DNA from: Mobula hypostoma
Taxonomy: Eukaryota
Assembly (NCBI RefSeq): GCF_963921235.1
Contig: NC_086097.1
Location: forward strand, 116,934,001-116,998,000
Direction of reading: 5' to 3'
DNA length: 64,000 nt
The translations under genes were made by a program, and so were the position numbers. Positions 249-62,190 of this stretch are shown here, piece by piece. The notes under the pieces were generated by a model. The model was given only the letters and a program-made list of their open reading frames with translations. It did not search any database and had not been told where the DNA came from. Every line of letters begins with the position of its first letter. Positions within the stretch are counted from its first letter, which is position 1.

Positions 249-721
249 GGTGGCCAAGCATTTTAATTCCCATTCCCATTCCCATCTTGACATGTCAGTT
301 CATAGCCTCCTCTAGTGCCTCAGGGTGGAGGAGCAGCACCTTATATTCCGTCTGGGCATCCTCCAATATGTTGGCATGAATATTGATTTCTCTTTCTGGT
401 AATTTTTTTCTCTCCCCCTCCTCTCTTCTTCTGGCCCCCACTCCGGCCTCTGTTGACCTGCATATCACCTACCCTGGTGCCTCTCCTTCTTCCCATTCTC
501 CTATGGTCGACTCTGCTCTCCTGTCAAATTCCTTCTTCACCGTCCCTTTCACCTTTCACCTTCTAGCTAGCCTCCTCCCCCTCCCCCCACCTATTCATTC
601 TGTCATCTTCTCCCTTCCTTTCCGGTCCTGAAGAAGGGCCTCAGCCCCTAAACATTGACTGTTTATTCATTTCCATTGATACTGCCTGACCTGCTGCATT
701 CCTCTAGCATTTTGTGTGTGT
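249..721 (+). mobile_element. Penelope-like element 3' fragment with degenerate hammerhead motif
   Basis: Encodes EEQHLIFRLGILQ..GMNIDFS, matching the C-terminus of ORF 42675-44135. Followed by a pyrimidine-rich tract, GTCCTGAAGAAGGG..CCCTAAAC (~626-653) and the shared gctgcctgacctgctg tail. Confidence 0.85.
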
Positions 722-1811: not shown

Positions 1812-2392
1812 AAAAACGAAAAGCTAACCTGCTGGACCAGCTTACCAACACGAGTGGGACTATAATTGGGATCACATCTTTCATTGTGATTATCCTCATT
1901 GTTATCTCTGTTATTGTTCAACTCAAACAGCCGCGCAAAAAATTCATCCAAAGAAAACCAGACTTTGACCAAACAGTTTTTCAGGAGGTTTTTGAGCCTA
2001 CACACTATGAACTCTGTTCGCTTAAAGGAAAGGGGGCTGCAGCTGATCTAGGGGACATTGTAGATGACTTTGACAACTACCATAAACTGAGGCGATCGTC
2101 TTCTAAATGCATTCATGACCATCACTGTGGTTCCCAGATATCTAGCATTAAAGGTAGCCGTAGTAACCTCAGCACCCGTGATGCCACCATCCTCTCGGAA
2201 ATCCAGCCACAGCCAGTGAAGCCCAGTGTGCAGTCATTAAGTCGGCGGAATATCCTGGTCATGAAGCACAGCTACTCACAGGATGCGGCAGATGCATGTG
2301 ATATTGATGAAATCGAAGAAGTCCCAACTACGAGTCACAGGCTGTCCAGAAATGATAAGGCTGTCCAGCGGTCAGTATCAATTGATTTTTGA
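1812..2392 (+). CDS. NETO1: Neuropilin and tolloid-like 1, exon encoding TM helix and cytoplasmic tail (partial gene; upstream exons outside window)
   Basis: Polypyrimidine tract and CAG acceptor end at 1811 (phase 1). Translation (E)[115 protein letters not shown] closely matches the vertebrate NETO1 C-terminus as I recall it. Stop TGA at 2390-2392 followed by TAA. Confidence 0.95.
2371..2376 (+). promoter_or_regulatory. Internal alternative 5' splice donor (CAGCG|GTCAGT)
   Basis: Good donor consensus directly after AVQR, the point where mammalian NETO1 continues with FCLIG..TTRV. Phase 2. Confidence 0.7.
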
Positions 2393-12084: not shown

Positions 12085-12362
12085 CTTCTTCTTCTCCTTT
12101 CATCTCTTACACCTATCACTTCCCAGCTTCTCACCTCATCCCCCCTTCTCCCAACCTACCCACCTTCTCCCTCATCTGGTTTCACCCATCACCTGCCAGC
12201 TAGTATTCCTTCCACTCCACCCCAGCTTCTTATTTTGGCTTCTTCTCCCTTCCTTTTCAGTCCCAATGAAGGGTCTTGTCCCAAAATGCTGGCTATTTAT
12301 TCCTCTCCATTGATACCACCTGACCTGCTGAGTTCCTCCAGCATTTTGTGTGTGCTGCACAA
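12085..12362 (+). mobile_element. Penelope-like 3' tail fragment with degenerate hammerhead motif
   Basis: agtcccaatgaagggtcttgtcccaaaatg followed by cctgacctgctgagttcctccagcattttgtg. Confidence 0.8.
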
Positions 12363-13369: not shown

Positions 13370-13565
13370 GATGCAAGAGACTGCAGATGCTGGAACCTGC
13401 AGCATGATACAGTAAAAAGTGCTGGAGGAACTCAATGAGTCAGCAGCAGCAATGGAGGGAAATGACCCGAAGGACAGAAAAGAAATAAAGGGCCACAACC
13501 CAAGACACCAACCATTTCCCACTGTAGATGCTGCCTGACCCACTGAGTTCCTCCAATATCTTCTG
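13370..13565. mobile_element. Fold-back miniature element (inverted Penelope-like tails)
   Basis: gctggaggaactcaatgagtcagcagcagc and gatgctgcctgacccactgagttcctcca form inverted arms. Confidence 0.7.
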
Positions 13566-13897
13566 TGACGATTACAGATTAATTGACAATTGTGTTATTT
13601 GATAGTTGCCATAATTCTACTTGTGTTTGGATCTTGTAGCTGTATCATGTTGCATAGCTCAGACAAGCTTGCAGATGCTGAAACAGATTAGGACTTCAGC
13701 TGAGGTTGAAGTAAAGTGCTGGATTGTGGCCTTGGTCTAGAATCAGATTTGGATCAGGGCAACTTCAAATTGAGGACTGAGTCAGAATTATACAATTTAG
13801 CATGTAGCTGGCTATAGATAATCTGATCCCAGGTTAAACCAGCAGCGGGCTTAAATTCCATTCAAAGTGTAAATGATAACTCCCAACCAAGGAGAGT

Positions 13898-14114: not shown

Positions 14115-14610
14115 ACACAAGAGATTGTGTGGATGCTGGAAATCCAGAGTGATATACACAAAATGCTGCAGGAACTCAGCATGTCAGGCAGAATTTTAGT
14201 CCTGATGAAGGGTTTCAGCCCAAAGTATTGACTGCTTATTTCTTTCCATAGTGTGGCACGTGGCCAAGTGGTTAAGGCGTTTGACTAGCGATCTGAAGGT
14301 TGTGAGTTTGAGTCCCAGCCGAGAAAGCGTGTTGTGTCTTTGAGCAAGGCACTTAACCACACACTGCTCCAGACCATCCAGATGAAAATGGGTACCGGCA
14401 AAATGCTGGGGGTTAACCTCGCGATAGACTGGCGTCCTATCCGGGGGTGGGGGTGGGGGGGGGGGGAGTCTTGTATTCTCAGTCGCTTCACACCACAGAA
14501 ACCGGCATAAGCACCGGCCTGATGAGCCTATAAGGCTCAGGACAGACTTTAACTTTGACCTTTCCATAGATGCTGCCTGGCCTATTGAGTTCCCCCATCG
14601 TTTTGTGTGT
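14115..14610. mobile_element. Fold-back miniature element with hammerhead remnant in the loop, split by a SINE
   Basis: Arms aaaatgctgcaggaactcagcatgtcaggcag and ctgcctggcctattgagttcc. Loop contains GTCCTGATGAAGGGTTTCAGCCCAAAG (~14199-14225). Confidence 0.75.
14252..14559 (+). mobile_element. Young full-length tRNA-derived SINE
   Basis: A box TGGCCAAGTGG and B box-like GAGTTTGAGTCCC, short (ACTTT) tail, and an exact 10-bp TSD CTTTCCATAG (14242-14251 and 14560-14569). Confidence 0.9.
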
Positions 14611-16895: not shown

Positions 16896-17470
16896 CCGGT
16901 GGCCACGCTTTTAATTCAACTTCCCATTCCCAGTCTGACATATTGGTTCATGGTCTCCTCTACTGCATCTCTCGGGTTGGAGTAGCAACACCTCCTATTT
17001 CATCTGAATAACCCTCCAACACTGATTGCTCTGACTTTCAGAAATTTCTAGCCCCTCCCTTTCCCTCTTTTCCATTCCCCCTTCTGGCTCCCCTCTTACC
17101 CCATCTCTTCTCCTCTCCAACCCATCACCTCCCTCCCTTGTCTCCTTCCCTTTCTCACAAGGTGCAGGGTCTGCTCTCCTATCAGGTACCTTCTTTTTCA
17201 GTCCTTTATCATTTCCACCCTTCCCTCCCAGCTCTTTACATTACCTCCCACCCCCACCTTCCCCCTCACCTGGTTTCACCTATCACCTGCCATCTTGTAC
17301 TCTGCCCCTTGCCCCACCTTCTTATCCTGGCTTCTTCCCCCTTCCTTTCCAGTCTTGATGAAGCATCTCAGCCCAAAATGGGGCATGTTTATTCCCCTCC
17401 ATAGACTCTGCCTGACATGCTGAGGTCCTCCAGCATTTTGTGAGTTGTTGCTTTGCATTTACAGCATCTC
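16896..17470 (+). mobile_element. Penelope-like 3' fragment
   Basis: ccggtggccacgcttttaattc..cccattccc, pyrimidine tract, degenerate hammerhead (agtcttgatgaag..cccaaaa) and shared tail. Confidence 0.85.
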
Positions 17471-17676: not shown

Positions 17677-19710
17677 TCTACTGACTCGCACCCCGACAAA
17701 CCCTGACTCACACCCCCATCTACCCTGATTCACATCCCCACAAACCCCGACTCACCCCCCCACATACCCTGAATCACACCCCCACATACCTTGACTCACA
17801 CTCTCACAAACCCTGATGCACCCCCACATACCCTGAATCACACCCCCCACATACCCTGACTCAAACCTCCACAGACCCTGACTCACACCCCCACATACCC
17901 CAACTCACCCCCCTTGTACCCTGACTCACACCCTCACATACCCTGAATCACACCCTCCACATACCCTGACTCACACCCCCCACATACCCTGTCTCACACC
18001 CCCACATACCCTGACTCACACCCCCACATACCCTGAATCACACCCCCACATACCCTGACTCACACTCTCACAAACCCTGACATGCACGCCACATACCCTG
18101 TCTCACACCCACCACATACCCCGACTCACACACCCCACATACCCCGATTCACCCCCACGTACCCTGACTCACACCCTCACATACCCTGACTCACACTCTC
18201 ACAAACCCTGAGACGTACCCCCACATACCCTGAATCACACCCCCCACATGCCCTGACTCACACCCCCACATACCCCGACTCACCCCCCACATACCCTGAC
18301 TCACATCCCCACACACCCCGACTCACACCCCCACATACCCTGACTGACACCCCCACATACCCAGACTCACACCGTCACAAACTCTGACACGCACCCCCAC
18401 ACACCCTGATTCACACCCCCACATACCCTGAATCACACCCCCACATACCCTGACTCACACTCTCATAAACCCTGACATACACACCACATACCCTGTCCCA
18501 CACCCACCACATACCCCGACTCACACACCCCACATACCCCGATTCACCCCCACGTACCCTGACTCACACCTTCACATACCCTGAATCACACCCTCCACAT
18601 ACCCTGACTCACACTCTCACAAACCCTGAGAGGCACCCCCACATACCCTGAATCACACCCCCCACATACCCTGACTCACACCCCCACATACCCCGACTCA
18701 CCCCCCACATACCCTGACTCACATCCCCACACACCCCGACTCACACCCCCCACATACCGACTAACACCCCCACATACCCAGACTCACACCCTCACGATCT
18801 CTGATACGCACCCCCTCACACCTTGATTCACACCCCCACATACCCTGACTCACACCCCCACAGACCCTGACTCACACTCCCCACAATCCCTGACTCACAC
18901 CCCTACAATCCCTGACACGCACCCCCACATACCTTGACACGCACCCCCGCATGCCCTGACACGCACCCCCGCATGCCCTGACTCACACCCTCACATACCC
19001 TGACTCACACCCCTACAATCCCTGACTCACACCCCCACATACCCTGACTCACACTCCCACATACCCTGACACGCATCCCCGCATACCCTGGCTCACACCC
19101 TCACAAACCCTGACTCACACCCCCCACATATTCTGACACACACCTCCACATACCCTGACTCACACCCCCCACATACCCTGACTCACTCTCCCCACAAACC
19201 CTGACACGCACCCTCACATAGCCTGACACGCACCCCCACATACCCTGACACGCACCCCCGCATACCCTGACTCATGTCCCCACATACCCTGACACGCACC
19301 CCCACACACCCTGACAATCACCCCCACATGCCCTGACCCACACCCCGACATACCCTGACTCACACCCCCACACACCCTGACAATCACCCCCACACACCCT
19401 GACAATCACCCCCACATGCCCTGACCCACACCCCGACATACCCTGACACGCACCCTCACATACCCTGACTCACAACTCCACATACCCTGACTCACACCCT
19501 CACATACCCTGACTCACACCCCTACAATCCCTGACACGCACCCCCACATACTCTGACTCACAACTCCACATACCCTGAAAATCACCCCCACATACCCTGA
19601 CTCACACCCTCACATACCCTGACTCACACCCCTACAATCCCTGACACGCACCCCCACATACCCTGACTCACAACTCCACATACCCTGACTCACACCCCCA
19701 AATACCCTGA
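17677..19710. repeat. ~22-bp minisatellite, roughly 90 copies (consensus ACCCTGACTCACACCCCCACAT)
   Basis: Directly visible tandem array with variant units and higher-order duplications. Confidence 0.97.
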
Positions 19711-21169
19711 GAAAGATTTTTTTTAAATATTGAAATCTTCTCGATGTACAGGACATCATTCCTCCCTATTCAGTAACACCAACATTTTTTACTCAACCTC
19801 ACTAGGAGAAAATAATCTTTCTAAATGACTTAGTGCAAAATTCATCCACAATATTTTTTTCTGAACTAGGTAGTTTTCTGGGACACAATATATAAGATGT
19901 TGATGTTTTGGTATCATTGACCTGCTTCACCCGAACAGAAAGGGGATGTTCACTAATATCTTTTAATTGGTCAGAGCATCAGTCTTAGTTGCACACTAGA
20001 TGTCAACCTCTTTTGATAATCGCAATTGTTATACAGACCCAATCTACATTTTCTACCTTCCCCTGCTGTTTGCATAGCAGACAGATCTCAACTGTTGCAG
20101 GGATTTTGGCAGGCAAATCATGGTAGTTCAGACCCTGAATGTCTGCTTCAACGAGGACAACTGTGTTTCCTGTTTCATGCATGTGTCATTGTTGATCAAG
20201 AACAAATCACCAGGAATGCAACAGTTTATTGACCTGAACTTTGTTTCCCAAGACTCCCTGACTTTGCTGCTTAGGTCTATTTTTCCTAAGATTTCTAACA
20301 TCCACAGTATTTTTGTTTAATGTATTCTTTGGGTTTCTTTTTGAACATTAGCAGTATGCAAATTGTCCCATTTATATGTGTACAACAACAATAAATATAC
20401 ATACATTAAACTTAATAGAATGCAAAACTGTACTATAAGTTTGTTAATTTTGCATGTATTATTCTTATTTAGCCTTCTGAAATCAGTAAGAGGGTTTGAA
20501 AATTGCATAGATTATGTTCAGATTTAAACCAATTGTACATTAATGTCAAAGCATTTTAATTTTGGTTTTACATCTTACAGAATGAAGCAAACTGTGAATT
20601 ATTATTACTGAGGGACAAACTGAAAAGAAAGCCTAGGCAGATTCTATTTGTTAAACTTTATTGAGCATCTTTAATCTTAGAAATAGGACTTAACTATATG
20701 AATTACTTGATTTGAAATAAAGATAATTTTTATCTTTAATATAAAACACTTGCATAAAATACTGGCATAATTAAATGTGGTTTTATTTTCAAAGCTTCCC
20801 TTATGGATCATTTTTGCCATGCATTTGTGTTTTTCCTGCTTTCAGCAGGTTCTTCTGCACAATTTATCATTATCTCCTGGCAGCACATCGCTATTGTGAT
20901 ATTTCTCACATATTGCCATTAGTTTCTCTTTACCTAACCTCTGCCCAAACAAGACTTGCAAGTATTGATTTAATCCAAGTAATGGTCTCTGCCCTTGTGT
21001 CTCTTCATTGGACCATTAAAGTTAAGAGCAACCTCATGCAAGATCTTTAGTTCCCTTCCTGATCTATTTGTTAACCAATTCAATGGAATCATCACTGAAT
21101 GATTATCTCAGTGACTGCCATCATTACATTAACCTGCAACTCTTTACTAAGCATAAGAATATTTGCTTT

Positions 21170-24040: not shown

Positions 24041-26184
24041 CTGTGTCACTGTTTGTGGAAACTGACTGGGATATCATTGTGTTGGTGACATTGAAATGCT
24101 TGTTCCTACTTTGGCTGCAAGAAACTGATTTTTCTGCTATTCATCTGTATTGCAAAAACCTAGGCAAGGCTGGTTATGTGGAATGCCATAAAGAAACCAA
24201 AAAGAATGCCAAAGAACAAGTGAAGATAAAGCATATCAAGTGGCCATGATTAACAGACATCAACCTTAAGTTTTAAAATTGTGGCTGTATGAAAAAAATG
24301 GAGGAATGCTTCTTGTCTTCAAATTATTGAGGATTAAAGGAGAGGTGAAGCAAGTAAAATAATAAAGATTGAGGCTCGCTGTAAGAAAGCTAAGCGGGGA
24401 AAAGGAAGAAAGATGCCAATAAAAATTGATGTCCAAAATTAGCAAGAAGATTGCCTGTCACATAAGAGCTTGTTACCTGGAAGGTTCCCAAAATCAGTAT
24501 ATGCTTTGTTAAGTAGATACTGTCACAACCATCAGCTGGTTGAATTAGTGAAATTATTTCCTGCGATCTATTGATATTTGAACAGAATGCAAAAAGAATT
24601 AATGGATTCGTTATCTCCTGATTCTTTACTAATATAATAACTTTTTCAGTGGACACGTGGTTGACAGAATACTTTACCTTGGGCTTTCTTATGATGTTAA
24701 CTATGTTCTTATCCTCTTCTTCAGGGGGATGCTCCTGAGGATGGACGAGAATGACAGTGATGAATGTGAAATACATCAAGAGAGACAAACAGAACCTTAC
24801 TTCCTCCACCACTGTTAAACAAAGCTCACCGTCCACCCACTCCCACCCCCTCACCTTGGCTAACTAACTAGGATGTCCAACATATTTTCAGGCTCTTTGC
24901 CATTAGCATCATTTCCAGTCTCACACTGCAGCACATAATAGATGCAGAGAGAGAAAAAAAATGAATAATTCTAAGTGCCTGAGCCCATACTCATCGACCG
25001 ACAGGGATTGGATTCGCATAATTGGCGGAGCATTTATTAAATAGAAACTTCAGGTTTGGAAACTGCTGCAATTAATTCTTTGCAGTGAAACTACCACCGT
25101 TTAAACTATAGGCATCTCAGCCCAGCATATGGCTTGATTCATCGCACTCTAACTGCATGTGATTGATGCCCAGAGTGAATATATTTTGCATCTTAATGCA
25201 GTGTTTTCTCCAGTACAGCAAGTTTCTACCAATGAAAGTGCAATTCCAATTTTAAAAAAACAAATTGTTTTCAGAGAAATATTTGCTTAGTAAGTCCAAA
25301 TCTCCCAGCTCACAGTCATATTTGGACACAGCAGGAGCAATGAAATATTCTTTGATATTATCGCCCCAAAAAGAGAATGTAATTATTTCGGATGTCTCCT
25401 CCGAGCATTAACATTAAATTGTAAAAATGTCTGTGTAATTCTGCATTTATTGAGGAGGTGCTGTCGTTTAAATGCAAAAAAGTTCCATTTTGAAATTTGA
25501 ATACTGCAATATAAAACCAAGAACATGACATTATACTGAGTTTGTTTCCAGTTTTATTTCCATTATACATGAGACATTCTGTTCCCACGAGCTGCCAGTT
25601 CTAACTGTCGAATATGTATGTTGTTGTTCCTTTTGTTATTGCATTGCTTTAGGCTTTTTACAAGAAATGGAAATAAATAATTAAATTATTGAACAGAGGT
25701 TTTTCTTTATTATTTGAACGTTGCATTGAAACAAAACAACTGTGGCGCCTTGGAGTTGTTATACTTGTGTAACATGTGCACAGCTCCAAAGAGTCAAATT
25801 CCCTGCTTCAATCCTTTATTAGCAATTAGCAAGCATACAGTTCAGCATCATTGAGCGTTATCTCAGCGGTTAGCGAAGATATCACGTCCACGGTCCTACG
25901 CTACAGACTGCCACAAATACACAACTTAACCGGTTTGCTTTTACCATGTCGCAACTAATGTGACTAGTTACCATAATACACATCATAATTGTGCAATACA
26001 GAATGCATGGCTCCTACAGGTGGTTCCATTCTGTTCAGCCACCTTCAATCCCGATATCTTGACAACTACCTACAGAAGTCATTTTCAGTTTTGAATGAAT
26101 GCACTCATTTGGGAATTTTTTCCTGGATGTCTCTGAAATTAGTCTCCTCCTTTCATCCCTTAGTAGCATTGTTATAATCAATGG

Positions 26185-26280
26185 CCAGTCCCGATGAAGG
26201 GTTTTAGCCTGAAACATTGACTCCTGATTCCTTTCCATAGATGCTGTCTGATTTGCTGAGTTCCTCCAGCATTTTGCTCT
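26185..26280 (+). mobile_element. Isolated Penelope-like tail with hammerhead remnant
   Basis: AGTCCCGATGAAGGGTTTTAGCCTGAAACATTGACT followed by the shared tail. Confidence 0.75.
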
Positions 26281-28210: not shown

Positions 28211-29556
28211 TAGAAACATAGAAAATAGGTGCAGGAGTAGGCCATTCGGCCCTTCGAGCTTGCACCGCCATTTATTATGATCATGGCTGATCATCCAACT
28301 CAGAACCCCGCCCCAGCCTTCCCTCCATACCCCCTGATCCCTGTAGCCACAAGGGCCATATCTAACTCCCTCTTAAATATAGCCAATGAACTGGCCTCAA
28401 CTGTTTCCTGTGGCAGAGAATTCCACAGATTCACCACTCTCTGTGTGAAGAAGTTTTTCCTAATCTCAGTCCTAAAAGGCTTCCCCTTTATCCTCAAACT
28501 GTGACCCCTTGTTCTGGACTTCCCCAACATCGGGAACAATCTTCCTGCATCTAGCCTGTCCAATCCCTTTAGGATTTTATACGTTTCAATCAGATCCCCC
28601 CTCAATCTTCTAAATTCCAACGAGTACAAGCCCAGTTCATCCAGTCTTTCTTCATATGAAAGTCCTGCCATCCCAGGAATCAATCTGGTGAACCTTCTTT
28701 GTACTCCCTCTATGGCAAGGATGTCTTTCCTCAGATTAGGGGACCAAAACTGCACACAATACTCCAGGTGTGGTCTCACCAAGAATTTGTACAACTGCAG
28801 TAGTACCTCCCTGCTCCTGTACTCGAATCCTCTCGCTATAAATGCCAGCATACCATTCGCCTTTTTCACCGCCTGCTGTACCTGCATGCCCACTTTCAAT
28901 GACTGGTGTATAATGACACCCAGGTCTCGTTGCACCTCCCCTTTTCCTAATTGGCCACCATTCAGATAATAATCTGTTTTCCAATTTTTGCCACCAAAGT
29001 GGATAACTTCACATTTATCCACATTAAATTGCATCTGCCATGAATTTTCCCACTCACCCAACCTATCCAAGTCACTCTGCATCCTCTTAGCATCCTCCTC
29101 ACAGCTAACACTGCCACCCAGCTTCATGTCATCCGCAAACTTGGAGATGCTGCATTTAATTCCCTCATCCAAGTCATTAATATATATTGTAAACAACTGG
29201 GGTCCCAGCACTGAGCCTTGCGGTACCCCACTAGTCACCGCCTGCCATTCTGAAAAGGTCCCGTTTATTCCCACTCTTTGCCTCCTGTCTGCTAACCAAT
29301 TCTCCATCCACATCAATACCTTACCCCCAATACCGTGTGCTTTAAGTTTGCACACTAATCTCCTGTGTGGGACCTTGTCAAAAGCCTTTTGAAGATCCAA
29401 ATATACCACATCCACTGGTTCTCCCCTATCCACTCTACTGGTTACATCCTCAAAAAATTCTATGAGATTTGTCAGACATGATTTTCCTTTCACAAATCCA
29501 TGCTGACTTTGTCCGATGATTTCACCGCTTTCCAAATGTGCTGTTATCACATCTTT
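28211..29556 (-). mobile_element. Young 5'-truncated CR1 LINE with open RT C-terminal frame
   Basis: ORF 28300-29574 contains QHGF..KSCLTNL, YLDLQKAFDKVPH, GVPQGSVLGP, FADD and LVRPHLEYC with no internal stop. Octamer-type tail (tagaaaca) at 28211. Confidence 0.95.
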
Positions 29557-29600
29557 ATTCAGAGGGTGGTGCAAGGATGGAACAAGCTGCCAGCGAAAGA

Positions 29601-30020
29601 GGTGGATATGGGTTTGGGTGGATAGGGGTTTGGGTGGATAGGGGTTTGGGTGGATATGGGTTTGGGTGGATAGGGGTTTGAGTGGATAGGAGTTTGGGTG
29701 GATATGGGTTTGGGTGGATATGAGTTTGGGTGGATATGGGTTTGGGTGGATATGGGTTTGGGTGGATAGGGGTTTGGGTGGATAGGGGTTTGGGTGGATA
29801 GGGGTTTGGGTGGATATGGGTTTGGGTGGATAGGGGTTTGGGTGGATAGGGGTTTGGGTGGATATGGGTTTGGGTGGATAGGGGTTTGGGTGGATATGGG
29901 TTTGGGTGGATAGGGGTTTGGGTGGATATGGGTTTGGGTGGATATGGGTTTGGGTGGATAGGGGTTTGGGTGGATAGGGGTTTGGGTGGATAGGAGTTTG
30001 GGTGGATATGGCTTTGGGTG
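29601..30020. repeat. 16-bp G-rich minisatellite, ~26 copies (GGTGGATA[T/G]GGGTTTG)
   Basis: Directly visible. Explains the 16-aa-periodic spurious ORFs at 29555-30079. Confidence 0.97.
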
Positions 30021-30339
30021 CAACATTTAAGAGAAGTTAGGATAAATACATAGATTGGAGGGCTATGGTCCATGTGCAAGTCGACAGGACTAGGCAGAAT
30101 AATAGTTTGGTACGGACTAGATGGGCTGAAGAGCTTGTTTCCGTGCTGTGGTGCTCCATGACTCTATGTCTTTATGGCCTATTCATGAGTATTCATCTAG
30201 TGATACACAGGCACTGCCACATGCTCAGCTGAGACACAGAATGTAAGAAGCAGAATTAAAATTACTGGAGAAGCTCAGCAGGTCAGGCACCTTCTGTGCT
30301 TTTGTTCGGAATTTTCAACATCTGCAGGTTATATGCGTG

Positions 30340-35419: not shown

Positions 35420-36066
35420 GATACATACACAAAATGCTGGTGAACGCAGCAGGCCAGGCAGCATCTCTAGGAAGAGGTACAGTCGATGTTCCGGGCTGAG
35501 ACCCTTCGTCAGGACTAACTGAAAGAAGAGACAGTAAGAGATTTGAAAGTGGGAGGGGGAGGGTGAGATCCAAAATGATAGGAGAAGACAGGAGGGGGAG
35601 GGATGGAGCTAAGAGCTGGAAATTTGATTGGCAAAAGGGATACAAGGCTGGAGAAGGGAGAGGATCATGAGACGGGAAGCCTAGGGAGAAAGGAAGGGGG
35701 AGGGGATCACCAGAGGAAGATGGAGAGCAGGCAAGGAGTTATTGTGAGAGGGACAGAGAGAGAAAAAAAGGGGGAAAATAATAAATAAATAAATAAATAA
35801 ATAAATAAATAGCTAGATAGCTAAACAGATAAATCGATATATAGATAGGTAGGTAGGTAAATGAATAAATAAATAAAGGATGGAGTAAGAAGGGGAGGAG
35901 GGGCATTAACGGAAGTTAGAGAAGTCAATGCTCATGCCATCAGGTTGGAGGCTACCCAGACGGAATATAAGGTGTTCCTCCAACCTGAGTGTGGCTTTAT
36001 CTTGACAGTAGAGGAGGCCGTGGATAGACATATCAGAATGGGAATGGGATGTGGAATTAAAATGTA
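35420..36066 (-). mobile_element. Penelope-like 3' fragment with near-intact hammerhead and internal (TAAA)n/(TAGA)n
   Basis: Highly similar to 42281-42838. Minus strand reads AGTCCTGACGAAGGGTCTCAGCCCGGAACATCGACT. Confidence 0.9.
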
Positions 36067-41735: not shown

Positions 41736-42280
41736 AACCTTTCTCTGTAATTCAGTTTCTCAAGTCCCAGCAACATCCTTGTAAACCTTCTCTGCATTCT
41801 TTCAACCTTATTAATATCCTTCCTGTAATTTGGTGACCAAAACTGCACACAATACTCCAAATTTGGCCTCACCAATGCCTTATACAACCTCACCATAACA
41901 TTTCAACTCATATGCTCAATACTTTGATTTATAAAGGCCAATGTACCAAAAGCTCTCTTTACGACCCTATCTACCTGTGACGCCACATTTAAGGAATTTT
42001 GTACCTGTATTCCCAGATCCTTCTGTTCTACTGCACTCCTCAGTGCCCTACCATTTACCTTGTATGTTCTACCTTGGTTTGTCCTTCCAAAGTGCAATAC
42101 CTCACACTTGTCTGTATTAAACTTCATCTGCCATTTTCAGCCCATTTTTCCAGCTGGTCCAAATCCCTCTGCAAGCTTTGAAAACCTTCCTCACTGTCCA
42201 CTACACCTCTTATCTTCGTATCATCAGCAAATTTGCTGATCCAACTTAGTACATTAATATCCAGATCATTGATACATTGA

Positions 42281-44145
42281 AACAACATACATCAAAGTTG
42301 CTGGTGAACGCAGCAGGCCAGGCAGCATCTATAGGAAGAGGCGCAGTCGACGTTTCAGGCCGAGACCCTTCGTCAGGACTAACTGAAGGAAGAGTGAGTA
42401 AGGGATTTGAAAGCTGGAGGGGGAGGGGGAGATGCAAAATGATAGGAGAAGACAGGAGGGGGAGGGATGGAGCCGAGAGCTGGACAGGTGATAGGCAGAA
42501 GGGGATACGAGAGGATCATGGGACAGGAGGTCCGGGAAGAATGACAGGGGGGGGGGTGACCCAGAGGATGGGCAAGAGGTATATTCAGAGGGACAGAGGG
42601 AGAAAAAGGAGAGTGAGAGAAAGAATGTGTGCATTAAAAAGAGTAACAGATGGGGTACGAGGGGGAGGTGGGGCCTAGTGGAAGTTAGAGAAGTCAATGT
42701 TCATGCCATCAGGTTGGAGGCTACCCAGACGGAATATAAGGTGTTGTTCCTCCAACCTGAGTGTGGCTTCATCTTTACAGTAGAGGAGGCCGTGGATAGA
42801 CATGTCAGAATGGGAATGGGATGTGGAATTAAAATGTGTGGCCACTGGGAGATCCTGCTTTCTCTGGCGGACAGAGCGTAGATGTTCAGCAAAGCGGTCT
42901 CCCAGTCTGCGTCGGGTCTCACCAATATATAAAAGGCCACATCGGGAGCACCGGACGCAGTATATCACCCCAGTCGACTCACAGGTGAAGTGATGCCTCA
43001 CCTGGAAGGACTGTTTGGGGCCCTGAATGGTGGTAAGGGAGGAAGTGTAAGGGCATGTGTAGCACTCGTTCCGCTTACACGGATAAGTGCCAGCAGGGAG
43101 ATCAGTGGGGAGGGATGGGGGGGACGAATGGACAAGGGAGTTGTGTAGGGAGCGATCCCTGCGGAATGCAGAGAGAGGCGGGGAGGGAAAGATATGCTTA
43201 GTGGTGGGATCCCGTTGGAGGTGGCGGAAGTTACGGAGAATAATATGTTGGACCCGGAGGCTGGTGGGGTGGTAGGTGAGGACCAGGGGAACCCTATTCC
43301 TAGTGGGGTGGTGGGAGGATGGAGTGAGAGCAGATGTACGTGAAATGGGGGAGATGCGTTTAAGAGCAGAGTTGATAGTGGAGGAAGGGAAGCCCCTTTC
43401 TTTAAAAAATGAAGACATCTCCCTCGTCCTAGAATGAAAAGCCTCATCCTGAGAGCAGATGCGGCGGAGACGGAGGAATTGCGAGAAGGGGATGGCGTTT
43501 TTGCAAGAGACAGGGTGAGAAGAGGAATAGTCCAGATAGTTGTGAGAGTCAGTAGGCTTATAGTAGACATCAGTGGATAAGCTGTCTCCAGAGACAGAGA
43601 CAGAAAGATCTAGAAAGGGGAGGGAGGTGTCAGAAATGGACCAGGTAAACTTGAGGGCAGGGTGAAAGTTGGAGGCAAAGTTAATAAAGTCAACGAGTTC
43701 TGCATGCGTGCAGGAAGCAGCGCCAATGCAGTCGTCGATGTAGCGAAGGAAAAGTGGGGGACAGATACCAGAATAGGCACGGAACATAGATTGTTCCACA
43801 AACCCAACAAAAAGGCAGGCATAGCTAGGACCCATACGCGTTCCCATAGCTACACCTTTAGTTTGGAGGAAATGGGAGGAGCAAAAGGAGAAATTATTAA
43901 GAGTAAGGACTAATTCTGCTAGACGGAGCAGAGTGGTGGTAGAGGGGAACTGATTAGGTCTGGAATCCAAAAAGAACCGTAGAGCTTTGAGACCTTCCTG
44001 ATGGGGGATGGAAGTATATAGGGACTGGACATCCAAGGTGAAAATAAAAGCGGTGGGGGCCAGGGAACTTAAAATCATCGAAAAGTTTAAGAGCGTGAGA
44101 AGTGTCACGAACATAGGTCGGAAGGGATTGAACAAGGGGTGATAA
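42281..44145 (-). mobile_element. Young 5'-truncated Penelope-like retroelement (RT and GIY-YIG endonuclease)
   Basis: LDVQSLYTSIP, QTKGVAMGT, RYIDD, FLDL and VIY..C..C..YIGETRRRL..RFAEH motifs. One frameshift near 44045. 13-bp TSD ATTGATACATTGA (42268-42280 and 44146-44158). Confidence 0.95.
42345..42380 (-). ncRNA. Minimal type I hammerhead ribozyme motif
   Basis: AGTC-CTGACGA-AGG(GTCTCGG)CCT-GAAA-CGTC/GACT: helix I AGTC/GACT, CUGANGA, helix II, GAAA, palindromic ACGT, GUC cleavage triplet. Confidence 0.8.
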
Positions 44146-44221
44146 ATTGATACATTGATATAGATGACAAATACAATGGACCCAGCACTGATCCCTGTGG
44201 TGCACCATTAGTCACAGGTAC

Positions 44222-50159: not shown

Positions 50160-51860
50160 TCTCCATTTGCAGCCCAAATACGAAGGCATGGCCTCGCAGA
50201 CAGCTCAATATGTGTGTCATTTATCAAGGAGAAAGAAGAAGTCATCACCCATTGGAAGGAACATTTTTGTGATGTCCTGAGAGACAAATCTATTCTTGAT
50301 GCGAACAGCATAGTTGCCCGTGGGGTCCACCCTTGTCACCGGCCCAACTGATAAAGAAACTAACCTAAACACAACATCATCTTTGGAGATTGATGACATC
50401 TGTGCTGAAGATATGAAACATGGTGGTGAGGATTTTTGCCAGTAATTCACAACATCTTCTCCTAAGTCTGGGAAGAGGAAGATATGCTAGGGGACTTCTG
50501 AGATGTGATAATCTCAGCCAGCTGCCAAAGAGGAGACAAGCCTGGCACTGGCACTCATGGGGAGGGAGATCGCCTTGCTTTCCTGTCCGACACGGGGCAA
50601 GTCTTACCTCAACCAGGGACTTGGGACTGGCTCAACTGCCACCCTCAAGTAGTTAAAGTACTTCTCAGCAAATCAGAGCACAGATTCTGCCCAGATAAGG
50701 CACAATGGACTCTGTATGCCAATCCTAAGAAAATTGCAGGAAGAGCATTAAGCACTACATATGACTTTCATGATGTCACAAGCACATTTTACGTCAATCT
50801 AGAGGCATTGTGGAGAAATTCATCTCCTCCTTAAATTCTCTCTATGATGTTATCCAAGCCATCATCACAACCTTAAGGTCCACAAAGTGATACGGTGTCT
50901 AGCGAGGCTTATGAAAAATGGAAAACTTTCCAAAGTGTATGACATCCACTGTGGAATCAATATCACCCTGACCTTAGCGGTTAAGTTGTTATAGAATATG
51001 ACACTAGAGAATGAGTGCATTTGGAGACCAAATTCCAAGTCACTATCTACTTATTCATTGAGTTATACTCAACAGCAGCAAATCAATCACCCTGTACTAA
51101 ACCAGTCCAACTGTTCATCACTGACCTCAGACAATAAAAATCCACAATGAGTCCATGGAAGAAGTGGACCACCTCACAGACTTCAGGTGCCACCAATCAG
51201 AAAAGACAGGCATTGATGATGAAATACACCATTGCCTTCATTGAATCTCTACAATTATCTGAGGTAAAGAACGTTTGAAGTGCCAGACACTGACACAACA
51301 TAATTGTCTATCTAGAAGCAATAATTCCTACTCTTTGACATTCTTCTGAGATTTGGACTTCCTTGACCAGGCACCTCAAGACAAAGGAAGGATATAACCA
51401 TATGCTGATATGGTCCTGATGACAGATCTTATGAAGTAGTCCATGAAGAAGTCATGAAGTCCTGACGAAGAAATGTCTACAGTTTATTCCTCTCTGCTGA
51501 TGCTGCCTGATTTGCAGAGTTTGTCCAGCTTTTTGTGTGTGTTGCTCTGGATTTCCAGCATCTGCAGAATCTTCTGTGTTTAGAATGTAACCACAGTTTT
51601 CTATGAAAAAAATCTTCCAAAGTCACTAACTGGATTAGTGAGCCAATGTCATGGCCCTGTTCCAGGCTGACATCTATAATACTGAGGCCCCAATTTCACT
51701 GTTAACTTCCTGAGGCAGGCAAGATCAACTGCATAGCCAGAATAAAAAGTCTATTCAGAGCTCTGACATACCCAGAGATCAGAATGTGGACAACAGAAAA
51801 TGCTCAACAATATTCTCAAAGGCTCCTTGAAAAAAGTGCAACACCGCTGTTAACTCCTGG
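50160..51860 (+). mobile_element. Heavily decayed RTE-type LINE
   Basis: Remnants EVITHWKEHF.DVL, DI.AE..KHGG, WEEE...GDF.D and KRGDK resemble the RTE RT N-terminus. A Penelope-like tail is inserted at ~51455-51580. Confidence 0.6.
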
Positions 51861-56194: not shown

Positions 56195-56429
56195 TGTGCT
56201 ACTAAAAAAACACATGGAGACAGAGAGAACTGAACTCAGGATGCCTTTACTTATTCAAAATCGCACGTTTAAATCTCCCCTCCCATGGGCCCCTGCGACC
56301 CGCGGGACGGACGTGACGTCAGACTGTCCCCGGAAGGTCCGCACCGAGCGGGTAGTTCCAAACGCGCTACCGTGTGTCCGCCCACGGCTCCCGACGGCGG
56401 TTCAAGTCCCACGTGTGCGGGCCGCCACA
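56195..56429 (-). mobile_element. Candidate short solo LTR, CpG-rich
   Basis: Minus strand starts TGTGGCGG and contains a TTTAAA box and AGTAAA. No TSD found. Confidence 0.4.
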
Positions 56430-56812
56430 TGCTGATGAAAGGCCATTGACCTGAAACAATGAAGCTGTTACTTTCTCCATTATTACTAACTCACCAGCTA
56501 AACTTTCTCCTGCATTTGCTGTTTCTATTCATAATAAATACAGTGATGATCTGGGAATAGAAATAATGATTCTGCCAACTGTTCATGTTTTCCTAACAAA
56601 TTAAAACACCATTAGCCGATGATAACCTAACCTACAGACATGGATGTTATTCAGGAGATATGGTTCTCAGAGGGAATAAAGTACTTGGTATTTCAAACCT
56701 GATAGGTTTTTCACAGATTCCAGGGCTGATGAAAGTTCTAAAGCCCACCTCCTGTACAAGGCAGGGAGTTCCAGACACGATTTCTGATCAAATACAGAAG
56801 ACAATTAAACAA

Positions 56813-59154
56813 AGCTACACACACAAAATGCTGGAGGATCTCAGCAGGCCAGGCAGCATCTATGGAAAAGAGTACAGTCGACGTTTCAGGCTGAGAGCCT
56901 TCGGCAGGGCTAAAGAAAGAAAAGATGCGGAGTCAGATTAGACTGTGGGGGAGGGGAGGGAGAAACACAAGGTGATAGATGAAACTGGGAGGGGGACGGG
57001 TGAAGTAAAGAGTTGGGAAGTTGATTGGTGAAAAAGATATAGGACTGGATTAGGGAGAATCTGACAGGAGAGGCCATGGAAGAAGGAAGAAGGGGAGAAG
57101 CACCAGAGGGAGGCGATGGGCAGACAAGGAGATCTGGTGAGAAAGGGAAAAGGAGATGTGGAATAGAGAAGGGTGGGGTGGGGGCATTTCCAGAAGTCCA
57201 AGAGATTCCTTCATGCCATCAGTCTGGAGGTTACCCTGATGGAATATAAGGTGTCGTTCCTCCAACATGAGTGAGGTCTCATCGTGACAGCACAGGAGGA
57301 CATGGGCTGACATCTCAGAATGGGAATGGGAAGTGGAATTAAAATGGGTGGCCACTGGGACATCCCACTTTTTCTGGCGGATGGAGTGTAGGTGCTATGT
57401 GAAGCGGTCTCCTAATCTACTTCGGGTTTCACTGATAGATAGGAGGCCACACTGGGAGCACCGGAGACAGTCAATGGCCCCAACAGACTCACAGGTGAAG
57501 TGCCGCCTCATCTGGTAGCGAGAAAGGAGGTGTAGGGGCAGGTGTAAAACTTGTTCCGCTTGCAAGAATAAGTGCCAGGAGGGAGATCAGTGGGGAGGGA
57601 CAAATGGACAAGGGAGTTGCGTTGGGAGAGATCTTTGTGGAAATTAGAAAGTGGGGGGAAGGGAAGATGTGTTTGGTGGTGGGATCCCATTGGAGATGGC
57701 GGAAGTTACGTAGAATTATGTGCTGGATGCGAAGGCTGGTGGGGTGGTAGGTGAGGACAAGAGTGACCTTATCCTTGGTGGGGTGGCGGGACGATGGGGT
57801 GAGAGCAGACATGCGTGAAGTGGAAGAGATGCAGTTGAGGGCAGCATTGATGGTGGAAGAAGGGAAGTCCCTTTCTTTGAAAAAGGAGAACATCTCCTTC
57901 ATTCTGGAATGAAAAGCCTCATCCTGCAGACACAAAGGAGACAGAGGAATTGAGAGAAGGGGATGGCATTTTTACAGGTAACAGGGTGGGAGGAGGAATA
58001 GTTCAGGTAGCTGTCAGAGTCTGTGGGTTTATAATAGACATTATTGGATAAGCTGTCTGCAGAGGTAGAGACAGAGAGATCAAGACAGGGGAAGGAGATG
58101 TCAGAAATGGGCCAGGTGAATTTGAGGGCTGGGTGGAAGTTGGAGGCAAAGTGGATGAAGTCGACGAGCTCGGCATAGGTGCAGGAAGCAGCTCCAATGC
58201 ATTTGTCAATGCAGCATAGGAAGAGTAGGGGAGTGACACCACTGTAGGCTTGGAACATAGACTGTTCCACATAGCCGACAAAAAGGCTAGTATAGCTGGG
58301 ACCCATGTCAATAACCATGGTTACACCTTTTGTTTGAAGGAAATGGAAGGAGCCCCTTACCCTTGCCCCTACACCTTCTCCCTCACTACCATTCAGGGCC
58401 TCAAACAGTCCTTCCAGGTGAGGCAACACTTTACCTGTCAGTCTGTTGGGGTCACCTATTGTATCCTGTGCTCCCAGTGTGGCCTTTTGTATATTGGTGA
58501 TACCCAGCTTAGATTGGGAGACTGATTCCCTGAGCACCTGTGCGCCGTCTGCCAGAAAAAGCAGAATCTCCCAGTGGCCATTCATTTTAATTCCACTTCC
58601 CACTCCATTCTGTCATGTCTATCCAACGCCTCCTCTACTGTCCTGATAAGGCCACGCTTAGGTTGGAGGAGCAACACCTTATATTCCATCTGGGAAGCTT
58701 CCAGCCTGAGGGCAAGAACACAGGCTTCTCGAACTTCGTGTAATGGCCCCCCTCCTTTTCTATTGCCCATCCCCTTTTCCCCTCTCTCACCTTATCTCCT
58801 TGCCTGTCCATTGCCTTCTCCTTTTTCATCCTTCATCCTTCCATGCCCTTCTGTCCTCTCCTATCAGACTCCCTCTTCTCCAGCCCTGTATCTCTTTTAC
58901 CAATCAACTTTCCAGGTCTTTAATCCACCCCTCCCCCTCCTGGTTTCACCTCTCACCTTGCGTTTCTCCCTCCCCTTCCCCCTCCCACCTTCTAACTCTG
59001 ACTTTTCAACTATTTTTCTCCAGTCCTGCTGAAGGATCTCGACCCGAAGCATCAACTCTACTCTTTTCCATAGATGCTGCCTGGCCTGCTGAGTTCCTGC
59101 AGCATTTTGTGTGTGTTGCTTGGATTTCCAGCATCTGCAGATTTTCTCTTGTTT
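56813..59154. mobile_element. Penelope-like element with inverted (head-to-head) structure
   Basis: Minus-strand copy 56813 to ~58331 joined to plus-strand copy ~58332-59154, with both 3' tails pointing outward. Exact 12-bp TSD ACAATTAAACAA (56801-56812 and 59155-59166). Confidence 0.9.
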
Positions 59155-61014: not shown

Positions 61015-61200
61015 TCTTACAGATGTTGGAAATCTTGAGCAACAAACACAGAAAATGCGGGAGGAACTCAGGTCAGGCAGCATCTACTAAGCGATATAAT
61101 CATGTCCTAATGAAAGGCCTTGGCCTAAAACATCGAATGTTTATTTCCTTGCATGAAAGCTGCCTGATCTGCTGAGATCCTCCAGCATTTTATGTGTATC
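61015..61200. mobile_element. Fold-back miniature element with hammerhead remnant in the loop
   Basis: Arms ggaggaactcaggtcaggcagc and gctgcctgatctgctgagatcctcc. Loop contains gtcctaatgaaaggccttggcctaaaac. Confidence 0.75.
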
Positions 61201-61486: not shown

Positions 61487-62190
61487 AACACAAGTGATTC
61501 TGTAGATGTTGGAAAGCCAGAACAACACACACAAAATGCTGGAGGAACTCAGCAAGTCAGGCAGCATCTATAGAGAGGAATAAAGAGTCAACATTTCCGG
61601 CCGTAACCCTTTATCAGGACTGGAAAGAAAGCGGTAAGAAGTCAGGTTAAAAACACTGGAGGAACTCAGCAGGCCAGGCAGTATCTATGGAAAAGAGTAG
61701 ACAGTCGACCCTTCAGTGGGACTGGAGAAAAAAAGACAAGGAGTCAGAGTTAGAAGCTTGGGAGGGAGAAACACAAGGTGATAGTTGAAACCAAGAGGGG
61801 GAAGGGTGAAGTAAATAGCTGAGAAGTTGATTGGTGAAGGAGATACAGGGCTGGAAATAGTGGATCTGAAAGGAGAGGACACAAGGCCGTGGAAGAAAGA
61901 AAAGTGGGAGGAGAACCAGAGGGAGGTGATGGGCAGGTAAGGAGATAAGGTGAGAGAGGGAAAAGGGGATGGGGAATGGTGAGGGAGGGGGGAAGCACTA
62001 TCAGAAGTTCAAGAAATTGATGTTCATGTCATCAGGTTGGAGGCTACCCAGATGGCATATAAGGTGTTGCTCCTCCAATCATCGCGACAGTAGAGGAGGC
62101 CATGGATTGACATGTCGGAATGGGAATAGGAAGTGGAATTATCACCCGAAACATCAGCTGTTTACTCAGTTCCTGGCCTGCTGAGTTCCA
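61487..62190 (-). mobile_element. Penelope-like 3' fragment with tandem tails
   Basis: Two successive tail units (~61530-61625 and ~61655-61725), each with a hammerhead remnant. Confidence 0.8.

Follow-up and report, generated by a model that had tools for sequence, protein, structure and literature searches.

A minimal hammerhead motif in the end repeat of a Penelope-like retrotransposon, young and abundant in Mobula hypostoma

In the window analysed here, a stretch of 64,000 nucleotides of the Mobula hypostoma genome, 36 bases on the minus strand (42345-42380) can be read as a minimal hammerhead ribozyme. This raises the question of what carries the motif, whether its RNA could cut itself, and what cutting would do for the carrier. 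As such the motif is ordinary, since minimal hammerheads in the end repeats of Penelope-like elements (PLEs) have been known since 2014; what this genome adds is scale, and statistics on the role of the ribozymes in the element cycle. The answer that we consider probable is that the motif is a minimal hammerhead located in the end repeat of a PLE, likely of the Neptune clade, that is young and highly amplified. The copy is likely dead and is 5'-truncated. Self-cleavage is predicted to be weak and to occur in a dimer or together with the protein of the element, and the template of reverse transcription is likely uncut.

The motif at 42345-42380 and its carrier

The 36 bases agree letter for letter with the preliminary description, and from the GUC triplet cleavage is predicted between 42349 and 42348, as proposed there. 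On the minus strand the arms of helix I (42380-42377 and 42348-42345) enclose the core (42376-42370), an unpaired A (42369), helix II (42368-42357), GAAA (42356-42353) and the palindrome (42353-42350). This assignment is based on sequence, descriptor and folding, and its register on covariation. All the core requirements are present (C3 U4 G5 A6 N7 G8 A9, G12 A13 A14, A15.1-U16.1, H17). The minimal type-I architecture with a palindromic helix III, claimed earlier for this copy, also stands: helix III has no loop, and its palindrome is ACGU both here and in the young and middle subfamilies.

A descriptor of the paired minimal hammerhead matches the window only at this copy, with 0.1 matches per 354 kb in a Markov control. 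The bare pattern CUGANGA..GAAA occurs eight times in the window against 6.8 expected, which is not above chance. An Rfam scan gave no match to the motif at gathering scores, and the descriptor found no intact same-strand partner for it in the window.

Minimal hammerheads were described in the pseudo-LTRs of the PLEs Xena, Poseidon and Neptune in fishes, the coelacanth and Xenopus (Cervera and de la Pena 2014, PMC4209133). According to the sections of that paper available to us, they share with the motif studied here the type-I fold without loop 3, the palindromic 15.2-16.2, the extra base between positions 9 and 10.1 (an A after A9 in the 42345 copy) and the occurrence of most copies as solo motifs. 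They differ at pair 10.1-11.1, a conserved G10.1-C11.1 there, while it is G·U in the 42345 copy and the youngest subfamily and G-C in the older subfamilies here. Save for this pair, the motif, judged from its sequence and predicted structure, matches the PLE minimal hammerheads, and it is another member of this already known system. The main sections of PMC4209133 do not name cartilaginous fish, which its supplement may list.

The link to Penelope made in the preliminary description holds as well. The motif lies in the 3' pseudo-LTR of a 5'-truncated PLE of 1.87 kb (42281-44145, minus strand) with reverse transcriptase (RT) and GIY-YIG domains, which is 99.3% identical to the full-length copy L059 and is flanked by a 13-bp target-site duplication (42268-42280 and 44146-44158). 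The ORF remnant (42675-44145, minus strand, stop codon 42677-42675) covers the C-terminal half of RT, a C-x4-C-x2-C linker and the GIY-YIG endonuclease, with Pfam matches to RVT_1 (E 2e-5) and GIY-YIG (E 4e-4) that are both below the curated cut-off. Between this remnant and the motif lies a pyrimidine-rich 3' UTR (42381-42674, minus strand). Past the motif, the conserved 3' part of the pseudo-LTR (42281-42344, minus strand) extends to the nearer of two putative reverse-transcription start sites, and the element terminates at this short 3' end, without the 35-nt tail extension. The copy is likely a dead insertion, located 40 kb beyond the stop codon of a NETO gene and on the opposite strand. 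Its target looks like a decayed LINE RT fragment.

Among 20 genomic loci fetched around close RT matches, three (L051, L056, L059) are full-length tandems. Counted from the ATG, their open frame is 1,015 aa long, and on either side of it lies an intact hammerhead, the distance between the two being 3,513-3,517 nt. An inverted 5' copy is also present in two of these three loci. As in endonuclease-bearing (EN+) PLEs, a single ORF contains RT and, at its C-terminus, GIY-YIG (Pfam matches below the curated cut-offs), and there are partial-tandem pseudo-LTRs, inverted 5' copies and an optional tail. The layout of the three loci is the standard partial tandem of such elements (PMC8557442, PMC3846280). 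In the parts of these two papers available to us, PLEs form partial-tandem and inverted insertions with a one-sided tail of 30-40 bp; direct and inverted pseudo-LTRs, the one-sided tail and target duplications are common to those elements and the one described here. The two motifs are about 3 kb apart in the full elements reported in the accessible sections of PMC4209133, and the 3.5 kb found here is likewise a dimer-ready layout.

The element protein has 714 relatives at E<=1e-30, the best named one being a shark protein (72%). The C-x4-C-x2-C before GIY-YIG fits the Neptune-type CX2-5CxxC linker between RT and endonuclease, although Nematis has such a linker too, and it is by this motif, not by a tree, that we assign the element to the Neptune clade as likely. 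The protein relatives listed include no named Neptune reference.

Non-LTR retrozymes of animals have also been described (Li, Clavereau and Pollet 2026, 10.64898/2026.07.22.740005). In the part of that report available to us, they have type-I hammerheads tied to PLE pseudo-LTRs, also in the one chondrichthyan sampled. However, non-LTR retrozymes are non-coding tandem arrays with a hammerhead in each unit, while the 42345 copy is a coding, truncated PLE fragment with a single motif.

Copies in the window and in the genome

Twelve relatives of the motif in the window had been named in the preliminary description. All of them are real pieces of the same end repeat, whose profile finds 22 pieces in the window, 10 of which are profile seeds; the 56432 copy is a weak later match. 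None of the twelve passes the intact descriptor, and 42345 is the only intact copy in the window. By the profile, decayed end-repeat copies are found at 12247-12354 and 17339-17445 (both plus strand), and two more at 61526-61734 (minus strand). A decayed head-to-head pair, also identified by the profile, lies at 14153-14251, with similar pairs at 13416-13567 and 61046-61198. In two short decayed copies the homology starts at helix I (26183-26276, plus strand, and 51457-51541, plus strand, a profile match with helix II deleted). A truncated copy at 35423-36065 (minus strand) has two core or palindrome changes. The copy at 56432-56521 (plus strand) belongs to an older family that also bears hammerheads but differs in helix II, and at 56818-59121 there is an older head-to-head pair of truncated elements, with the junction near 58355 and A6C in both hammerheads. 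A CpG-rich insert (56290-56431) directly precedes the old-family hammerhead and is possibly another mobile element end.

For the copy near 626 the preliminary description proposed a sense orientation within a NETO1 intron. The orientation and the intron stand: this old end-repeat copy (612-721, plus strand, found by sequence and profile) lies in the last intron of a NETO-family gene. It is preceded by the LDLa exon, some 6.5 kb ahead of the window, and followed by the last coding exon (1812-2392, plus strand), which has a PDB match to NETO2 (E 1e-50). The gene name is less firm and depends on a C-terminus that we take to be that of NETO1. The copy itself is dead: its core is broken, and G12 and the palindrome are lost. 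The last coding exon runs on to a short C-terminus that presumably resembles that of NETO2, the rest of the gene being, as we take it, NETO1-like; a motif search found no alternative last exon in the window. The 200 kb upstream of the window, where the 5' limit of the gene was not located, contain five intact copies, three on the minus and two on the plus strand.

Two other regions of the window stand out: 18001-20000, with raised GC and a GC skew of -0.70, is probably a simple-repeat tract, and the longest stop-free frame (28303-30036, minus strand) is probably a piece of LINE ORF2.

The very large genomic load expected from these relatives is borne out. In the 3.48-Gb genome a looser core-intact pattern has 65,205 exact matches, the strict hammerhead 34-mer 45,476 and the tail 34-mer 77,448, each against 0 for the reversed control. 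The accessible sections of PMC4209133 give about 9,000 for Xenopus and 4,000 for the coelacanth, obtained with descriptors that differ from ours. We also applied the end-repeat profile to 29 stretches of 10 kb at round coordinates and found 56 matches in 290 kb, one per 5.2 kb (reversed control 0). The density of one per 5 kb estimated earlier is thus valid beyond the window. The descriptor finds eight intact motifs in the 29 stretches. Extrapolated to the genome, there would be about 0.67 million end-repeat pieces (range roughly 0.5-0.9 million), and the core would be intact in 10-14%.

Conservation and predicted folding of the hammerhead

Clustering of 270 aligned copies gave subfamilies whose members are 2-21% from their own consensus. 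Between the young families and the oldest, represented by the 56432 copy, 11 core positions are unchanged in the consensus, and there are differences at N7, H17, the linker and loop II. In helix I, a C-G pair of the young copies is U-A in six out of six oldest-family matches, and pair 10.1-11.1 is A-U in the oldest family, G-C in the older subfamilies and G·U in the youngest. Such compensatory changes in helices I and II between families are what is expected of PLE minimal hammerheads. In the oldest family the palindrome is seen only in a form that is likely CpG-decayed, and the old-family pattern with an undecayed palindrome has no match in the genome.

The covariation also bears on helix II, drawn as AGG/CCT in the preliminary description. 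This pairing should probably be replaced by an unpaired A followed by G10.1·U11.1, G-C, G-C and U·G around a CUCG loop. The new register is predicted to be 1.4 kcal/mol more stable (-6.0 vs -4.6 kcal/mol), and the covariation at helix I and pair 10.1-11.1 leads to the same unpaired A and four-base-pair helix II.

The preliminary description had made its reading depend on a core that is better conserved across subfamilies than the flanking tail. This is only partly the case: the core surpasses its immediate flanks, but between families the conservation of the tail stem equals that of the core, and one lineage has fixed A6C. Among inserted copies, core and tail identities are 0.981 and 0.982 for young copies (n=168, a set picked partly by core or tail patterns) and 0.873 and 0.904 for older ones (n=83). 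By this comparison of sequences, inserted copies decay neutrally, and since core and tail decay equally once inserted, nothing suggests a host use of the 42345 copy.

It is accordingly very improbable that individual copies such as 42345 act on host transcripts, co-opted in introns or UTRs. With 65,205 core-intact motifs some must be in transcribed sense orientation, and the shared palindrome could permit pairing in trans. However, the equal identities of core and tail speak against such a use, the NETO intron copy is dead, and the 42345 copy, at 99.3% identity to its family, is outside the gene.

A6C is found in 15 of 27 copies of one tail type versus 1 of 164 young copies; it has 971 exact genome matches, and 9 of 12 sampled A6C loci have the older tail. 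The middle-aged subfamily (56818-59121 in the window; L263-L274) was amplified with A6C, and the youngest subfamily has A6. The same core change occurs in natural hammerheads that were tested in vitro as stand-alone ribozymes, in which A6C, according to the part of the paper available to us, made cutting in Mg slower by orders of magnitude (Naghdi et al. 2020, PMC7151607). Taken as sequence patterns, the equal decay, the conserved tail stem and the amplified A6C lineage argue against strong selection on cutting.

The folding predictions agree with a modest activity. The monomer cannot form helix III because there is no room for a loop, and in its predicted lowest-energy fold the core and the cleavage triplet are paired with each other. 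In the dimer, legal pairs allow a double hammerhead, but at a predicted -9.5 kcal/mol vs -28.3 kcal/mol for the dimer minimum. Any cutting is predicted to be weak and to involve a dimer or the protein of the element, which would fit what is reported of relatives, whose activity is low and dimer-dependent or protein-assisted. In work by Lunse et al. in RNA Biol, PLE hammerheads are said to cleave as dimers.

We think it improbable that the motif never cleaves and is a vestige kept solely for its overlap with a promoter or a protein-binding sequence. The A6C lineage, the change from G10.1-C11.1 to G·U in the youngest subfamily and the self-pairing predicted for the monomer would all suit a vestige. 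However, the compensatory changes in both helices preserve the hammerhead geometry, and related motifs cleave as dimers or with protein, as reported in PMC11167929 and the accessible sections of PMC4209133.

The predicted fold depends on where the RNA begins. Counting from the cut site, helices I and II are predicted to form in RNA whose first base is at -36 to -32, and to be masked by the native leader from the 3' UTR. In 40 young copies the predicted probability of helix I is 0.43 without the leader vs 0.07 with it, and it is higher without the leader in 38 out of 40; beyond these, the comparison covered only two older copies. In three near-identical copies, 93-96% of 100 shuffled leaders mask less than the native one, a borderline result. 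A single copy used for another shuffle control was atypical in being unmasked.

Copy ends and the role of cleavage

To describe the ends we used 100 young copies picked solely by the tail 34-mer, with positions counted from the cut site (0). There are two 3' ends, at about +65 and about +102, as expected if reverse transcription starts internally at two sites. In head-to-head pairs less than 600 nt apart, one copy has the long and one the short tail in 50 out of 50, which puts a number on the one-sided tail known from other PLEs; for gaps below 3 kb this is the case in 61 out of 64.

Most of these copies (91 out of 100) extend across the cut site, and three end exactly at it. Upstream of it, the 5' ends pile up: 35 out of 100 are at -21 to -46, and 20 are at -28 to -38, where the rate is 2.4% per nt at risk vs 0.07-0.38% outside -21 to -46. 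A by-eye tally of 100 listed of 1,505 selected copies gives 24 ends at -32, 21 at -31 and 12 at -30 (57 at -30 to -32), with five at -33. Position -32 is the first base of helix I. In the same 100 listed copies there is a smaller rise at -36/-37, and the cliff is sharp on its upstream side and tails off downstream. The pile-up is at the same position in copies with short and long tails (20/58 and 15/41). Genomic 5' ends piling up at helix I are not described in the main text of PMC11167929, and we found no published account of such ends at a hammerhead in a search that covered few subscription journals.

Read from the sequence of the copies, the helix I cliff is most likely the 5' end of a transcript started in the pseudo-LTR. 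The last 15 bases of the 3' UTR contain what we take to be a branch-point-like A, a pyrimidine tract, CAG and overlapping initiator-like motifs, the latter with an A at -32 and -36 if the assumed consensus is right. A more specific version, which we put forward tentatively, is that transcription from the element's promoter begins with the first base of helix I. The ribozyme would then stand at the 5' end of the mRNA, foldable there and masked by the leader in read-through RNA, and would act as a position-dependent switch by which the mRNA loses its capped 32-nt leader. If so, the short genomic copies, in their tens of thousands, would record the helix I start site as a fossil map.

A spliced template with a fixed upstream exon was considered and rejected, because the flanks at -30 and -34 share no sequence. 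A less likely reading than an RNA start is that the pile-up marks a road block or template switch of the reverse transcriptase, at folded RNA or at splicing factors bound to the pyrimidine tract and AG. The site does read as a 3' splice site. In Drosophila Penelope an intron ends at helix I (PMC4209133, available sections), and the start lies 46 nt ahead of this intron. Four of the 100 tail-selected copies end at -44 to -46, beside the branch-like A. Among the 24 junctions at -32 in the 100 listed copies an extra cap-derived G was absent (7 G, 10 A, 7 C), and many junctions are inverted and have microhomology. Against a road block, the cliff is sharp upstream with its tail downstream, and short- and long-tail copies end at the same position. 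Moreover, 6 of 30 loci join the target duplication directly at -30 to -32, without an extra exon, and there was no GT-AG joint among the contig joints listed. The latter come from assembled contigs of runs presumed to be RNA; contigs of four such runs span the end repeat, but assembled contigs cannot show ends.

How an uncut hammerhead fits into insertion can be compared with the Anolis carolinensis element PAc, of the Poseidon type (Frangieh et al. 2024, PMC11167929). In both, the optional tail is set by two internal start sites and both target strands are primed; for the element described here, start sites and priming are inferred. In PAc the hammerhead is dispensable for insertion in vitro, and no RNA-seq ends were seen at the cut site. 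The PAc ORF begins inside the hammerhead, whereas the ATG of L059 is 138 nt past the cut site.

By analogy with the Anolis element in vitro, the protein would bind near the tail and start reverse transcription internally at the two 3' ends, one for each target strand. From that element and the end data, reverse transcription would then pass through an intact, uncut hammerhead. On RNAs beginning at the front edge of helix I the protein would run off after 100-135 nt, and this would account for the abundance of short copies and of short head-to-head pairs. Insertion would not need cleavage, which, as a side step, would trim tandem transcripts or take off the capped leader. As far as genomic copies can tell, they argue for an uncut template, two different start sites per insertion and a sharp event at the front edge of the ribozyme.

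A different cycle follows from the model of Cervera and de la Pena, in which the two hammerheads of a tandem transcript excise the 3.5-kb unit, which is circularised and reverse-transcribed across the rejoined site. Two intact motifs do flank the ORF at unit distance, the core is kept with covariation across several subfamilies, and a religated circle would also yield copies that cross the cut site. We nevertheless regard this cycle as unlikely. The pile-up is unexplained by it, as a circle has no end at -32. A lineage was amplified with A6C, a change that made another hammerhead slower in Mg by orders of magnitude (PMC7151607, available part), and core mutants of the Anolis element were without effect on insertion in vitro (PMC11167929).

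Returning to the uncut template as the preferred reading, ends at the cut site itself should be considered. On the face of it, 23 of 100 listed of 1,689 selected copies end at 0 (by-eye tally, with about 15 rows set aside as internal deletions or duplications). A cleavage-site spike as a fossil of cutting in vivo was rejected: 13 of the 23 are inverted or deletion junctions with GACT/GAC microhomology, and the apparent spike vanishes when the microhomology of the two helix I arms is taken into account. Positions 0 to +4 have about 33 ends (6.6 per nt) vs 31 at +5 to +8 (7.75 per nt) in the same 100 listed copies. A small cleaved fraction may be present among the copies ending at 0.

With open full-length copies, this young family makes the role of the hammerhead testable by experiment. 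Recurrent internal deletions from the GTC of helix I to the GTC of the cleavage triplet remove the whole core (L171-L200; 100 listed of 1,689) and are likely template jumps on microhomology. A short tandem of a 31-nt unit (G000:C1:61736929-61736994) starts exactly at the predicted cut site, and a comparable tandem of tail pieces is found in L112.
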